Below are positions 4,795-27,148 of a stretch of 27,150 bases of DNA, one piece after another. Origin of the DNA: a bacterium (GTDB taxonomy: Bacteria; Arandabacterota; Arandabacteria; Arandabacterales; JALGWA01); NCBI GenBank assembly GCA_050125095.1, contig JASFEA010000024.1:1-27150 (forward strand), read 5' to 3'. Made by a program: the position numbers and the translations under genes. Within the stretch, counting starts at the first letter, position 1. Each line of letters starts with the position of its first letter. The notes under the pieces are model-generated. The model did no database searches, had not been told where the DNA came from, and saw only the letters and a list, made by a program, of their open reading frames with translations.

Positions 4795-5451
4795 TTAATC
4801 GCCGGTCTCCCGGGCGGGCTCGGGCTCTGTCCGGACCGCCGCTTCCCCCGGCGCGGCCCCTCTCCCGGCTGCTTTATCGGCCTCCCCTCCTTCACCGTCC
4901 TCCCCCGCTTCCCCGGCCATATCGTCCCCCTCGTCCCCGGCCGACTCTAAAATGGCCTGCAGGTGTTTTCTCAAGAGCACCTCGTCGCCGGGCCGGTAGC
5001 CCTTGTTCCTGTGGTACTGGCTGCGGTCGGGAAGGATGATAATGGTCGTGGGGATGGCCCTCACGTTAAAGCCCTTGGCCAGGCGGGTGTCATGGTCGAT
5101 GTAGGCGGGGACCGTCAACTCCTGCTTCTCGAGGAAGGTCTTGACCCTGCCCGCGTTTCTCTTCATGTCCACCGAGACCGCTGCGAACTGAACCCCCTTC
5201 GGCGCGAATTCGCGGTATAACTTCTCCAGATGAGGCATCTCTAGCTTACATGGAGAGCACCACGTGGCCCAGAAATTGATTACCAGGGGCCCCTTATCAA
5301 GGAGGCTGTCAATGGCCACCTCTTCACCATACAGGCCGGTCAGCATCACTCCCTCAAAGACAGAGGACTGGTCCTTCTCTCCCGCACAGACAGGCTGCGC
5401 TATAGCCCAAACGGCACAAAAAAATAACGCCGACAATATCGATTTGTTCAT
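4795..5451 (-). CDS. TlpA/ResA-family thiol-disulfide oxidoreductase, exported, with acidic low-complexity C-terminal tail
   Basis: Signal peptide, 'INFWATWCSPCKLEMP', cis-Pro 'RAIPTT'. ATG at 5451 preferred over TTG at 5454. Confidence 0.9.
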   Translation of the reverse strand: MNKSILSALFFCAVWAIAQPVCAGEKDQSSVFEGVMLTGLYGEEVAIDSLLDKGPLVINFWATWCSPCKLEMPHLEKLYREFAPKGVQFAAVSVDMKRNAGRVKTFLEKQELTVPAYIDHDTRLAKGFNVRAIPTTIIILPDRSQYHRNKGYRPGDEVLLRKHLQAILESAGDEGDDMAGEAGEDGEGGEADKAAGRGAAPGEAAVRTEPEPARETGD

Positions 5452-5457
5452 CAACTT

Positions 5458-5528
5458 AGTCTAGCAATCGGAAAGGCCAAAGTCAAGTTGAACAAGTCCT
5501 TGACATACCGCCGCTTAGGCCCCAGAAT
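5458..5528. promoter_or_regulatory. Divergent sigma70-like promoter pair
   Basis: Minus: TTGACT (5486-5481), 17 nt, TAGACT (5463-5458). Plus: TTGACA (5500-5505), 17 nt, CAGAAT (5523-5528). Confidence 0.55.
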
Positions 5529-5535
5529 TGCTGGC

Positions 5536-7068
5536 ATGAAGTACCGCGAGACTCTGTTATTGCCGGCAATAATGGCGCTTCCCGCCGTGGCGCTTGCTTT
5601 CGTGGAAGTCACGAATATCTCGGTGCGTCCGGCGGCTTTCTCACCCAACGGCGACGGCGTAAGCGACTCCACCGTCGTGAGCTTCACGACCTCGAGCGAG
5701 GCCAAGAGCGTCCGGCTCTTTATCGACGTGGTGGACGCCTCGGAAGACACGGTGGCGGTAATCGCCGACGGCGGAGAATACGGCACGGGTGAGACCGAGT
5801 TCACCTGGGACGGCTTCATGACGGGCGGAGCTCCCGCGCCCGAGGGCGTTTATCAATTCGTGATCGTGGCGGCAGACGATCACTACACCACGCCGCCCTT
5901 CTCGGCCAGCGCGAGGCTGGATGTCACGCCGCCCCACTTCACGACCTATATACACCCGAATCCGTACACCCCCGACCTCCCGCTCGCCGACTCGTTGCTC
6001 ACAGTCGAGTTGAGCGTGACCCAGGCCGAGGGAGGCGACCTGATAACGGCCACCATCAGCACCCGGGAGCCGCCCGAGACATTGTGCACCCGCTCCCTGG
6101 CGCCCGCGGACTCCACGTACATATGCGAGTGGGACGGCAGGCAAAGCGACGACGGCCTGTACGACATTTACGTGCGGTCAAGCGACCCCGCCGGCAATTC
6201 CATGGAAGCTTACTATGAAGTCGATCTCGACGTGGAGGCGCCCGCCATAAGCATAGAGAGCCCGGCGGAGAGCTTCCTCAATTACATACCCGCCTCTTAC
6301 TGGGTGACGGCGACCGACCGCAACGGCGTCGATTCGCTCAAGGTAAGGTTCTATGCGGGAAGCGAGTACATGGTGCCCGGGGGCTACCCGCAGCCCGAGT
6401 GTTGCTACGATTGGCCCGAGTCGCTTCGCATAGAGGACGAGTTCCTGCTTGAATGCGTGGCTCTCGACGGCGTCGGCCGCTGGGGCTCGAGCTTCAGGTC
6501 GGTGCTGGTCGATACGACCACGCCCGAACGCCCGGCAATAGAGGCCCTGCCGGAGAAAGTCGGGACGGCCGCGCTCCCCGTTGAGGGAACGGGCACGGCC
6601 GGTGACTCGGTAATGGTCTATGTCAACGGCGCGCTCAAGAAGCGAGCGAAGATCTCGGCCGCCGGAAGCTGGTCGGTTACCTTGACTCTCGATCTCGGCG
6701 TGAACACCATATATGCGGTCTCGTCAGACCTTGCGGGCAATGTGTCCCAGCCGTCCGATACGGTTCAGGTCGAGTACACCGAAGCCACGGGCATTTACGT
6801 CCCGGAGGAGTTCACAGGGGACTCGACCATAGAGATCAACCTCGCCAGGGAGGCCAGCCGCATAGTCATAAGGATATTGAGCCTCGAGGGCAGTTACATA
6901 ACGGCCATAACCGAAGACAATCCCGACCTCTACAACGAGATCGACTGGGATCTCACGGACGCAGGCGGCAAGCAGGTCAAGAACGGCATATATGTCCTGG
7001 TGATAGAGGTCGCCTACCCGGACGGCGGCAGCGAGATCGACAAGAAGGCGGTAATAGTATCGAGATGA
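5536..7068 (+). CDS. Secreted protein with repeated FlgD-Ig/bacterial Ig-like domains and a T9SS-like C-terminal domain
   Basis: Signal peptide from ATG 5536 (MKYRETLLL..VALA). FlgD-Ig-like modules 'AFSPNGDGVSD..TWDG..PEGVY', 'PNPYTP..WDG..DGLY' and C-terminal 'WDLTDAGGKQVKNGIYVLVI'; Big-type 'D.AGN.S' and 'VDTTTP' linkers. Confidence 0.75.
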   Translation: MKYRETLLLPAIMALPAVALAFVEVTNISVRPAAFSPNGDGVSDSTVVSFTTSSEAKSVRLFIDVVDASEDTVAVIADGGEYGTGETEFTWDGFMTGGAPAPEGVYQFVIVAADDHYTTPPFSASARLDVTPPHFTTYIHPNPYTPDLPLADSLLTVELSVTQAEGGDLITATISTREPPETLCTRSLAPADSTYICEWDGRQSDDGLYDIYVRSSDPAGNSMEAYYEVDLDVEAPAISIESPAESFLNYIPASYWVTATDRNGVDSLKVRFYAGSEYMVPGGYPQPECCYDWPESLRIEDEFLLECVALDGVGRWGSSFRSVLVDTTTPERPAIEALPEKVGTAALPVEGTGTAGDSVMVYVNGALKKRAKISAAGSWSVTLTLDLGVNTIYAVSSDLAGNVSQPSDTVQVEYTEATGIYVPEEFTGDSTIEINLAREASRIVIRILSLEGSYITAITEDNPDLYNEIDWDLTDAGGKQVKNGIYVLVIEVAYPDGGSEIDKKAVIVSR

Positions 7069-21302: not shown

Positions 21303-21932
21303 CTACCGGAACATGGCCTTAATGCCGCCCCATGTGGTAGGCTCTGTTGCCACCAGGGGCGGCCCCATATACGGCACGAAACCAATCGCCGCGTAGAAGA
21401 CGCTGTCCACCATGATCTCCTCATAATCGTGATGCCAGCAGCCTATCAGCGATATTCTGTCACCCGGAGTGGGAAGAATCTCGAGTTCACCGGGACCTGT
21501 TGCGGTAAGCCATGCCCACGCGGGGATCAGGAAGCCCGTCCCGTCATTTCCGGGCTGGCATTGGTTATATACAATTGATATCCAGTCGCCGGGCTCCCTG
21601 ATATCGCCGAGGTTGTTGTCGGCGCATACGAACGTGTACCAGGTACTGCCCCACTCGCCCGGCCAGTCCAGTGCAAACTCGACTCCCTGGGTCTCATCGA
21701 AACTGAAAACCACCACGAAGAAGTCGAAGTCGCATGGAAACTCCGCCGACATCCAGTAGTTGACGAAGTCCTGCCTGTCGTTGAGGACCGGCATGTTCTT
21801 GGAGCACCCTCGTTCTTCATGCAGCTCTATATGAAGGCCGAGTTTGACATGCTGGTTCAACAGACCCGCCCCCGCAGGGCAGGCGACGAGAACACAGCAA
21901 AGCGCGAATACAGATAGAGAGCGAACTCGCAT
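21303..21932 (-). CDS. Secreted hypothetical protein ending in 'VATEPTTWGGIKAMFR'
   Basis: Signal peptide, strong RBS AGGAGGAGG (21948-21940), Trp/Cys-rich beta-type domain, distinctive C-terminal tag. Confidence 0.8.
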   Translation of the reverse strand: MRVRSLSVFALCCVLVACPAGAGLLNQHVKLGLHIELHEERGCSKNMPVLNDRQDFVNYWMSAEFPCDFDFFVVVFSFDETQGVEFALDWPGEWGSTWYTFVCADNNLGDIREPGDWISIVYNQCQPGNDGTGFLIPAWAWLTATGPGELEILPTPGDRISLIGCWHHDYEEIMVDSVFYAAIGFVPYMGPPLVATEPTTWGGIKAMFR

Positions 21933-25741: not shown

Positions 25742-27148
25742 CTACTTCACGAGGACGATGCGAATCGTCTCCACCTCGTTGCCGTATATCATGCGGGCGA
25801 AATACACTCCGGAGGCCACGCTGGCACCCCTCGAATCGGCCCCGTCCCACGTGGCGACGTGCTCACCCGCCGCAGCGTGTGCGTCCACAAGCACTCTTGC
25901 CGAGCGGCCGAGGACATCATGAATGGTTATATGCACCCTGCCGGGCAGGGGAATCGAGTAGCGGATATTCACCCCGCTCGCCGGCTGGCCCCCCCCTTCG
26001 GTCTCGCCGAGGAGCTCGAGGGCCGGCCCCGCACCGGGCCGCGCGGGTTTCATTCCCGGTGGCATGACCTCCTGCGTCTTGTGCTCGCCGAGACCGCAGC
26101 CGATGTCAAGCGCCCCGACCAGGCAGGACAGCTGACGCCTGGCGCAGGGTGAAGTGGGCTGCAGGGAATAGACGCCCGCCGCGGGATCGCAGAGGCGCGG
26201 GTCCAGTGAGAAGTTGTCGCCGCCATTGGTGCCGCATATGGCGTCGCCACCGGCATTGCCGTACACATCTGTCGATGAGATGGTGGGATTGGCTCCGGTC
26301 ACGCAATAGACGCCTCTGCCCGAGGCCGTGTTCGCCACTACGGAGGCAGTTACGCTTCCGGCGCTGGTCGCGTCGTAGAAGAGGCCGCCCGCGCCGGTGT
26401 TGCCGTATATGGTGCAATTCTCAATGGCCGGCGACGAACTGATGCTGCTGATGCCGCCGCCCGCGCCCAGGGAGTTGCCTACGATTATGCAATTGGCGAT
26501 CGTCGGCGACGAGGAGTTCATGAATATACCGCCGCCGGTGCCGGGGCCCTGGGCGCCCTTGATCGTGAAGCCGTCGATGCGCGTGGCGCCCCCCACGCCG
26601 GTCAATGTGAACACGGACGAGTGGACGCCCTGGGCGTCGATCACCGTGCCCGCCGGGCCGGCCTCGCTGAGGATATGGAGGTTCTTGTTGACCGTGAGCC
26701 CGCCCTCATTGTACGTGCCGGGCTCGACCAGGACGGTGTCGCCGGCCGCCGCCGAGTCCAGGGCGGCATCTATGGTTGGGGCGTCCGTGGGCACGCGCCA
26801 TGTGCGGTTCTCGGTATTTACCGTCGCCCGGACCCTCACGCCCGTATCGCAGTTCTCGCAACCGCCCACCGACTTGATGTCGGTCCAGCTGCTTCCGCTG
26901 GAGCTTATATAGCAGGAATTGGAGGTCGGCGTGCCGTACGAGTCGATGGCGATCGGGTAGGTGTAGGTGAAATTGGTGAGCTTGACGACAGCGTATATAT
27001 CGTCGCCCGCCGATACCGAAAGGGGCGTCGTGAGCTCCACGGATATGTATCCATGTTCATCACGACCGTGGTTGAGTTCGCTCGCCAGGAGGTTGGACAG
27101 CGACGTCCCGTTGAAGTCATCATATATGTAGACGTCAACGTCCGAGGT
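25742..27148 (-). CDS. C-terminal part of a large secreted protein: lectin-like domain, right-handed parallel beta-helix, and FlgD-Ig (T9SS-like) C-terminal domain
   Basis: Frame is open to the window edge (TSDVDVYIYDDF..GYISVELTTPL..), so the GTG at 27040 is internal. 'VPTDAPTIDAALD..GDTVLVEPGTY', 'IDGFTI..GGGI..SSPTIANC' beta-helix; CTD 'IRYSI..I.DVLGR..R.LVD..WDG.D..G..VASGVYFARM..IVLVK'. Confidence 0.85.
   Translation of the reverse strand, partial: TSDVDVYIYDDFNGTSLSNLLASELNHGRDEHGYISVELTTPLSVSAGDDIYAVVKLTNFTYTYPIAIDSYGTPTSNSCYISSSGSSWTDIKSVGGCENCDTGVRVRATVNTENRTWRVPTDAPTIDAALDSAAAGDTVLVEPGTYNEGGLTVNKNLHILSEAGPAGTVIDAQGVHSSVFTLTGVGGATRIDGFTIKGAQGPGTGGGIFMNSSSPTIANCIIVGNSLGAGGGISSISSSPAIENCTIYGNTGAGGLFYDATSAGSVTASVVANTASGRGVYCVTGANPTISSTDVYGNAGGDAICGTNGGDNFSLDPRLCDPAAGVYSLQPTSPCARRQLSCLVGALDIGCGLGEHKTQEVMPPGMKPARPGAGPALELLGETEGGGQPASGVNIRYSIPLPGRVHITIHDVLGRSARVLVDAHAAAGEHVATWDGADSRGASVASGVYFARMIYGNEVETIRIVLVK

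Follow-up and report, generated by a model that had tools for sequence, protein, structure and literature searches.

The window analysed here, that is, the whole 27,150-nucleotide stretch of DNA, is contig C24 of a genome held in 268 contigs (3.35 Mb, 60% GC, 91% complete, 3.5% contaminated). It carries on its reverse strand a gene for a 209-aa protein (hereafter the window protein) and, further along, a gene whose product ends in a T9SS-type C-terminal domain (CTD) (Table 1). Positions 21303-21353 comprise the stop codon and final 16 codons of the window protein (VATEPTTWGGIKAMFR), whose C-terminal end as a whole reads FVPYMGPPLVATEPTTWGGIKAMFR. At the other end of the chain, MRVRSLSVFALCCVLVACPAGAG was called as a Sec-type signal peptide by our own heuristic; the A-x-A-G with which this peptide ends is conserved in the family alignment, and its Cys is not conserved in the family. 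A Pro-rich stretch (PYMGPPLVATEP) precedes the C-terminal tag. The 209-aa ORF therefore bears out a sequence-only reading of this DNA, which had described a signal-peptide protein with a Pro-rich linker and a short tail. That reading had also seen no transmembrane segment, and indeed only eight residues follow the tag Trp, leaving no room for one.

Table 1 Features of the window protein and of the neighbouring CTD-bearing gene.
Feature	Position	Strand	Basis
Tagged-protein gene, 209 aa, ATG start	21303..21932	(-)	ORF list; stop codon 21303-21305
Sec-type signal peptide, residues 1-23	21864..21932	(-)	Heuristic; AF2 N-terminal helix, residues 2-15
Passenger domain, residues ~30-183, beta-sandwich	21384..21845	(-)	AF2; weak cohesin-like fold matches
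Linker and tag, residues 190-209, GPPLVATEPTTWGGIKAMFR	21306..21365	(-)	Profile A1 match, 44.4 bits; detached low-pLDDT tail
Tag core WGGIKAMFR, residues 201-209	21306..21332	(-)	Column counts; low-confidence helix 201-207
Neighbouring CTD cargo, frame off window edge	25745..27148	(-)	Own CTD HMM, frame residues 391-468

The AlphaFold2 (AF2) model of the window protein, based on a 15-row alignment, placed residues ~30-183 in a beta-sandwich (pLDDT 70-88) and residues 192-209 in a detached tail (pLDDT <50), where residues 201-207 are drawn as helical. No Pfam or NCBIfam match was found for the passenger, and its Foldseek matches to cohesins in the PDB were weak (E ~1e-3, TM 0.45-0.58). Ten homologs of the window protein were identified, nine of which align across the tail, and all nine have the tag at their end. 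Two paralogs of ~730 aa share its N-terminal domain, which is followed by DUF11 repeats with the tag at the far end.

The tag and its carriers in the genome

The tag has a consensus of ~18 residues, [CG]GP[ST]A[TV]EP[ST]TWGxIK[AS][LM][YF]R-COOH, and between 52 and 62 ORFs of the genome end in it, the number varying with the looseness of the pattern. When 26,725 six-frame ORFs of at least 60 aa (3.81 M residues) were searched with the core [ST]WG.[IVLM]K..[FYW], 53 matches were obtained; 52 of these lay within two residues of the stop codon, one lay at three and none was internal. Residue frequencies predict 0.17 such matches anywhere and 0.0036 at a C-terminus. A looser pattern yielded 58 ORFs, permitting F for W raised the number to 62, and profile A1 (30 columns, built from 54 tails) found 57 sites. 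Roughly 2% of the genome's genes bear the tag. Tandem tags were rare, with three copies in P0002 and two in P0011. The residues W, G and K are invariant across the 58 carriers, and in the linker E is present in 47/58 and P in 35/58. Wherever two tags have the same residue, the codons nevertheless differ in 51% of comparisons (5,427/10,686), and the invariant Gly is encoded by all four codons, which points to selection on the peptide and not to a DNA repeat.

With their last 28 residues removed, the 58 carriers fell into 30 BLAST clusters. Signal-peptide-like N-termini were called in 51/58 carriers versus 891 of 2,306 background genes (39%) by a heuristic of our own that is crude and over-calls; the seven carriers without a call are fragments for the most part, including two at contig edges. 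The carriers have a median length of 290 aa, and Cys makes up 4.0% of their mature regions versus 1.4% genome-wide. Their Pfam domains include Beta_helix/Chlam_PMP, DUF11, X25, CBM_20, LTD, PD40, RTX repeats, FlgD_ig and, in one carrier, a periplasmic-type Metal_resist/LTXXQ domain, while 35/58 gave no Pfam match at all. The tag stays with the end of the chain, irrespective of the domains that precede it. These results agree with the sequence-only reading, which had placed such termini on many unrelated secreted proteins and had suggested a motif search with a check for signal-peptide enrichment: the motif extends well beyond the orthologs of a single protein, and the proteins that bear it are predominantly ones with signal peptides. 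A lipoprotein reading was rejected, as lipobox-like signal peptides were limited to 7/51 carriers.

Most tagged genes are dispersed, and no untagged neighbour is conserved across phyla. No recurrent untagged neighbour of tagged genes was found in this genome (G000); across 20 regions of five other genomes, an RND pump and a Ser/Thr kinase-TPR protein were the sole recurrent ones, and we took these to be coincidental.

The tails were also compared with sorting signals of known type. Their alignment showed neither an LPXTG or Gly-Gly motif nor a hydrophobic segment, and the 58 tails lack the features of PEP-CTERM, having no transmembrane helix, no Arg cluster, a single terminal Arg and no match to a PEP-CTERM model. 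In this respect too the initial assessment, that the tail is not LPxTG, PEP-CTERM or GlyGly-CTERM, was upheld. The outer-membrane beta-signal fits no better: the tail ends exactly at Arg in 44/58 carriers and at Lys in 6/58, not at a terminal aromatic residue, and the passengers are of beta-helix, beta-sandwich and propeller types. Even at E <= 0.1, none of the 58 tails is covered by a model from Pfam or NCBIfam, and searches of the full-text literature returned no description of the motif, of sorting signals in these phyla, or of a second PorU. Judged by its sequence, the tag belongs to none of the known sorting-signal classes and, as far as two family libraries and the full-text literature show, it is undescribed. 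The resemblance of E-P-[ST]-[ST]-W to the start of many PEP-CTERM signals raises the idea that an exosortase processes the tail as a degenerate PEP-CTERM signal. The architecture of the 58 tails argues against this, as does the exosortase itself (Exosortase_EpsH, PF09721), found in 0/18 genomes of the home phylum, 10 of them at least 90% complete; we regard this explanation as effectively refuted and its probability as negligible.

The amphipathic helix envisaged in the sequence-only reading fared less clearly. A helix was drawn for the core in two independent AF2 models, of the window protein and of the largest tagged family (pLDDT 45), and in both it has low confidence (pLDDT <50). Such a helix would suit a non-catalytic anchor, in which an interfacial amphipathic helix, with a face of W, I, L/M and Y/F flanked by K and R, holds the protein on the outer membrane or LPS, or in which the tag is a scaffold-docking peptide. 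MinD and FtsA offer examples of membrane-targeting helices at the C-terminus, avidity binding would fit the rare tandem tags, and the weak cohesin-like fold of the window passenger points in the same direction. Against an anchor of this kind stand the low pLDDT of both modelled helices and the nature of the conservation, since generic helices conserve a pattern, whereas the tag has invariant W, G and K and a linker conserved across phyla. It would also leave unexplained how surface-type passengers cross the outer membrane. Overall, we consider an anchor of this kind improbable.

The tag and the T9SS C-terminal domain

The genome encodes a T9SS, with SprA (501 bits), PorU (542 bits) and a PorV-like gene adjoining PorU, as well as six PorV-like barrels beyond that one. 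A T9SS-type CTD (NPNPF...GVYFYRL...TxKxVLLR), detected with our own HMM, ends 152 proteins with a median frame of 716 aa. None of the 160 proteins matched by this HMM is tagged, and no protein in the crude gene set has both CTD and tag. In one edge fragment, the tag comes after an internal FlgD_ig domain.

The two kinds of ending nevertheless occur on related proteins. Passengers homologous to those of CTD proteins were identified in 12/47 tagged proteins, representing at least four families, and the passenger of the CTD protein at the edge of the window is itself homologous to the tagged beta-helix proteins. Alignments between tagged and CTD proteins reach the last structural cysteines and then diverge, one paralog ending in CGPTRAEPTTWGKMKAMYR and the other in a linker plus CTD. 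Two pairs of adjacent genes, on C32 and C17, have such alternative endings. These comparisons show that the tag, as encoded, is interchangeable with the ~80-aa T9SS CTD on homologous passengers, and the alternative endings are the strongest evidence that tag and CTD are analogous modules. The tag looks like an address label able to replace a large T9SS domain. The counts (152 CTD proteins, ~58 tagged proteins, none with both) and the shared passengers also directly support the earlier proposal that a second class of cargo exists alongside the FlgD-Ig CTD proteins. The role of the tag itself in export or anchoring we infer from these patterns.

The idea that the tag mimics the last strand of the CTD (motif E) was rejected on the basis of a C-terminus-anchored PSSM of the last ten CTD residues, on which tags (median -16) scored close to background C-termini (-19) and far below CTDs (+18). 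Both endings have a conserved Lys, at -4 in the tag (invariant in 58/58) and at -5 in the CTD (117/148 in this genome). As described in PMC10994853, CTD recognition in F. johnsoniae involves a folded 7-stranded domain that buries ~1,850 A2 inside SprA/PorV and in which a single Lys, close to the C-terminus, is nearly invariant; set against the burial described there, a peptide of 9-18 residues could not reproduce it. The 'short' CTDs of Prevotella intermedia, as presented in PMC11969387, still hold motifs B, D and E, and are therefore not the tag. A predicted complex between canonical PorV (residues 23-335, 13-row alignment) and a 30-aa tail alignment scored 0.00 against a mark of 0.32, without controls, and is uninformative.

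Distribution across lineages and neighbouring C25 peptidases

In the home GTDB phylum, represented by 18 species in the genome collection used, the tag was found in 18/18 genomes, at 13-56 sites each (profile A1, E <= 1e-4), while the same profile found no tag in 23 distant genomes. In a wider sample outside the home phylum, it was found in 6/383 genomes (E <= 1e-8). A second small phylum, which holds a MAG labelled 'Gemmatimonadota', has the tag in 9/9 genomes, and a third phylum, which holds MAGs labelled 'Latescibacteria' and 'Fibrobacteraceae', has it in at least 37/121 sampled genomes at a threshold (E <= 1e-7) strict enough that some tag-negative genomes may be false negatives. The number of tag sites was 32, 12, 31, 18 and 1 in five genomes of other lineages and 4-66 in each of five further genomes; seven genomes of other phyla had 12-66 profile sites (E<=1e-4 to 1e-3).

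Among 1.84 billion cluster representatives, 698 proteins matched the tag profile at E <= 1e-3, and for the best 150 of these 698 the core lay at most 12 residues from the C-terminus in 142, the exceptions carrying short extensions or tandem tags. The public names of 10 matches from this search describe the passengers only. A degenerate DNA pattern run against species-representative genomes recovered at least 124 stretches, where a hand estimate gave ~1 chance match. Titles among the matches listed include Candidatus Eisenbacteria/Eiseniibacteriota, Krumholzibacteriia, Latescibacterota, Zixiibacteriota, Gemmatimonadota and 'Fibrobacteraceae', or simply 'bacterium'. The sequence-only reading, which had placed such termini in Eisenbacteria, Krumholzibacteriota and Poribacteria-like lineages, was accordingly right for the first two, and Poribacteria appeared in none of the 80 titles listed. 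The tag is therefore real, abundant, modular and clade-restricted, being confined to a few FCB-type candidate phyla.

This distribution bears on a further explanation, in which the tail would serve quality control or regulation in the periplasm, with a PDZ-type protease (Ctp, Prc or DegS-like) as its reader, and would play no part in localisation. PDZ domains read free C-termini, and a free C-terminus appears to be needed here, with 44/58 tails ending at R; the carrier with a periplasmic-type Metal_resist/LTXXQ domain is likewise in keeping with such a role. The conserved module is, however, 18 residues long and not 3-5, it stands in for a secretion domain on homologous passengers, and it occurs in few phyla, whereas proteases of this type are near-universal. 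We judge a role of this kind very unlikely.

SprA was present in every genome tested for it, namely this genome and the 121-genome sample of the third phylum (121/121). Since SprA is universal in a phylum of which only part has the tag (at least 37/121), coupling of the tag to the T9SS is not specific, and SprA was rejected as a discriminator of tag-bearing genomes. This genome also encodes two secretins, which offer another possible route across the outer membrane. One of the two lies in an apparent pilus-type cluster, as read from gene sizes only.

A second PorU-like gene (C154) encodes Propeptide_C25, Peptidase_C25 and a CTD. In G043 (three tagged genes, 176 bp gap), G041 (124 bp), G047 (3 bp), G048 (70 bp) and G122 (105 bp), tagged genes are followed directly downstream, on their own strand, by a reciprocal-best ortholog of C154, and canonical porU-porV pairs are found elsewhere in these genomes. 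Coordinates alone suggest further adjacency of tag and C154 ortholog in G042, G065, G136, G161 and G165; G044 has a C154 ortholog without an adjacent tagged gene. All 18 home-phylum genomes encode this paralog, as do the five genomes of other phyla in which orthology was checked, and five further genomes have a match at E<=1e-48 with orthology unchecked. At the 20 loci of C154 orthologs in the home phylum, no adjacent tagged gene was found. In G002, a tag lies ~3.3 kb upstream of the C154 ortholog, on the same contig and strand.

A second arrangement involves a peptidase on C3 composed of C25, CARDB, FG-GAP, Beta_helix and CTD, directly upstream of which lie the tagged genes L001 and L002. At 10/11 evaluable loci of its home-phylum orthologs, one tagged gene or a pair of them immediately precedes the peptidase gene. 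The two small tagged families concerned in the home phylum are mutually related (hhalign 99.4%) and unrelated to the family on the C154 side (hhalign 2.5%, and 58.6% over the signal peptide only). What the C154 and C3 arrangements have in common, in three phyla together, is the tag and a C25-CTD enzyme. All 15 sequences compared within the PorU-like family retain His968 and Cys1006.

Several observations temper the weight of these arrangements. Those inside one phylum are inherited and not independent, and with about nine C25-like genes in this genome a single tag adjacency is unsurprising on its own. More broadly, a tagged gene lies directly upstream of 7/152 CTD genes (4.6%) versus 29/2,726 other genes of this genome. 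In a replication set of five further genomes, adjacency of tag and C25 was found in one, and both extra Eisenbacteria/Krumholzibacteria genomes were without it; no C25 gene was found near the Eisenbacteria tag clusters examined. When a PorU HMM was used, at least two PorU-family matches were present in 30/37 tag-positive versus 57/84 tag-negative genomes (Fisher p = 0.19). A search for the PorU-like paralog with a protein query matched 109/121 genomes at E<=1e-40, a threshold that fails to separate it from canonical PorU. The genomic link between the tag and C25 peptidases is thus suggestive only. That these enzymes handle the tag is a tentative proposal, in which they would be its best candidate readers.

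These results leave some room for a sorting tag read by dedicated machinery unrelated to the T9SS and C25 enzymes, such as an outer-membrane receptor, a transpeptidase or a secretin route. The strict C-terminal position and the invariant W, G and K point to recognition by a specific protein. The T9SS parts do not follow the tag (neither SprA nor PorU-family copy number does), two secretins are present, and the tag is unlike the CTD. On the other hand, neither this genome nor the 20 regions of five other genomes yielded a conserved untagged neighbour; the passengers are shared with T9SS cargo, SprA occurs in all tag-bearing genomes tested, and one of the secretins appears to belong with a pilus. 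We therefore view separate machinery as rather unlikely.

A proposed sorting role and its parallels

Taken together, these data make it very probable that the tag is a genuine sorting or anchoring tag. Whether it is functionally tied to the T9SS secretome we see as evenly balanced. The reading we prefer, at slightly better than even chances, is that of a modular, linear C-terminal sorting tag, read by an envelope factor and defining a second cargo class, for which C25 peptidases would be the best candidate readers. In the proposed sequence of events, Sec export and oxidative folding of the tagged protein would come first. The folded passenger would then present the conserved extended linker, GP-S/T-A-T/V-E-P-S/T-T, followed by the 9-residue core, W-G-x-I-K-A/S-L/M-Y/F-R, which would have to end at the free carboxyl terminus. 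A conserved envelope factor could read this flexible tail as a free-ended peptide and decide the fate of the protein at or beyond the outer membrane, whether surface attachment or release, so that tagged proteins would form a second class of cargo beside the CTD cargo. PorU-related C25 peptidases, themselves T9SS cargo, might clip or transpeptidate the tag as PorU does CTDs. In the T9SS-bearing FCB lineages, then, a conserved envelope factor most likely reads the free-ended tag and thereby settles what becomes of this second kind of cargo at the surface. A more specific form of this proposal, which we put forward as a possibility short of likely, is that, in several uncultured FCB phyla, the tag is a transmembrane-less signal of ~18 residues that marks a second class of T9SS-associated cargo. 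Dedicated PorU-like C25 'sortases' may read it and either clip the tagged protein or attach it, or else the cargo may be carried across the outer membrane by CTD-bearing C25 proteins to which the tag binds.

LPXTG, PEP-CTERM, GlyGly-CTERM and the T9SS CTD each led to a processing enzyme and to a pathway of cell-surface biogenesis. To our knowledge, the Eisenbacteria, the Krumholzibacteria, the Latescibacteria-type lineages and the two small phyla that bear the tag have few or no cultured members. In these bacteria the tag profile could serve as a predictor for a hidden part of the secretome, including adhesin-like beta-helix proteins, starch-binding modules, surface proteins with DUF11 and a large family rich in Cys. 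The interchangeability of tag and CTD, together with the operon link to PorU-like peptidases, makes the sorting of surface proteins in non-Bacteroidota FCB bacteria testable. If true, a tag read or carried by C25 enzymes would be a sorting principle new for any Gram-negative secretion system.

Compared with known systems, the tag shares with MinD/FtsA-type helices a short terminal helix (in a low-confidence model) that has a hydrophobic face and flanking basic residues; those helices, in contrast, act at the cytoplasmic face and conserve only a pattern, whereas the tag belongs to exported proteins, with some of its residues invariant and its linker conserved. It is like PEP-CTERM, GlyGly-CTERM and LPXTG in being a short C-terminal signature found on many unrelated secreted proteins, tens per genome, in being clade-restricted and in being encoded at times beside a putative processing enzyme. 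In those three systems a transmembrane helix and a basic cluster follow the motif, and the tag differs in having neither. The tag-adjacent enzymes resemble PorU in their Propeptide_C25/Peptidase_C25 domains, their CTD and their invariant His/Cys pair, and differ from it in their scores (99-156 bits versus 451-542 bits for canonical PorU, with a cut-off of 420) and in their location away from a PorV gene. The tag differs from the T9SS type-A CTD in length (~18 versus ~80 residues, with no HMM similarity), in its absence from most T9SS-bearing genomes sampled and in its predicted structure, which is disordered or helical and not the 7-stranded beta-sandwich described in PMC10994853. It nonetheless resembles the type-A CTD in its C-terminal position on Sec-exported proteins of FCB-group bacteria, in its modular use over many passenger families, in a conserved Lys a few residues ahead of a basic C-terminal residue, albeit at -4 in one and -5 in the other, and in its genomic link to PorU-family C25 peptidases.

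Tagged proteins and their tag variants

The largest tagged family in the window's genome (G000) consists of ten proteins of ~290 aa, which also carry the top-scoring tags. Their Cys, Trp and Tyr content is very high and their genes frequently lie in tandem pairs. Searches of Pfam and NCBIfam returned no match to this family, and its AlphaFold2 model (pLDDT 45) did not give a usable fold. A variant of the tag in which the Trp is replaced by Phe or Leu (T[FL]GS[IM]KA.[FY]) was C-terminal in five further ORFs of this genome, most of which have a short extension after it; the three on contig C52 are paralogs of one another. Among the global matches to the tag profile, four metagenomic proteins (P0002, P0011, P0058 and P0109) have the tag core in two or three copies, arranged either in tandem or at a mid-protein position as well as the C-terminus. 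A TAG stop codon was commoner in the cargo genes of G000, being used by 38/58 tagged genes and 110/155 genes encoding the T9SS-type C-terminal domain (CTD), against 924/2,245 background genes.

For three tag-bearing loci (L062, L083 and L122, in genomes G042, G041 and G043, respectively), GTDB grouping contradicts the NCBI organism names. One GTDB phylum holds both 'Fibrobacteraceae' and 'Latescibacteria' MAGs, and the 'Gemmatimonadota' MAG falls within a GTDB phylum of 9 genomes.

Cargo-like features of the window

The passenger domain of the window's tagged protein matched cohesin modules in its fold, weakly but consistently. It is also found in six paralogs in the genome, two of which are fused to DUF11 repeats. 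The CTD-like segment of the 546-aa frame in the same window is internal, not C-terminal.

Coordinates and locations of the features described
Feature	Location	Strand	Remark
Passenger domain	window 21384-21845	-	
546-aa frame	window 5428-7065	+	CTD-like segment at residues 462-528
Largest tagged family	G000 C46, C76, C80, C148, C204, C218		L024, L031, L032, L034, L035, L046, L047, L053, L055, L056
Variant-tag ORFs	G000 C52 (three), C167, C230		
PorV-like barrel	G000 C39:17511-18528		PorU-adjacent
PorV-like barrel	G000 C2:59208-60264		
PorV-like barrel	G000 C14:23781-24765		
PorV-like barrel	G000 C71:11752-12877		
PorV-like barrel	G000 C2:43805-44816		
PorV-like barrel	G000 C187:626-1778		
PorV-like barrel	G000 C65:16624-17560		
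PorU-like paralog	G000 C154:4540-7290	-	orthologs in L237-L250
PorU-like paralog (L189)	G043:C1:2725494-2729602	-	split into overlapping frames of 624 and 897 aa

PorU-like paralogs and PorV-like barrels

Upstream of the PorU-like paralog in the home phylum, both in G000 and at the orthologous loci, lies a conserved neighbour, whose product is ~500 aa or longer and has the C-terminus ...GYFKGLAQEKLNEL. The split of the G043 paralog is due to a frameshift or to an error in assembly, or else the gene is a pseudogene. Seven PorV-like outer-membrane barrels were identified in G000, each scoring under the NCBIfam cut-off, and only the copy on contig C39 neighbours PorU. The additional PorV-like shuttles could serve different cargo classes.
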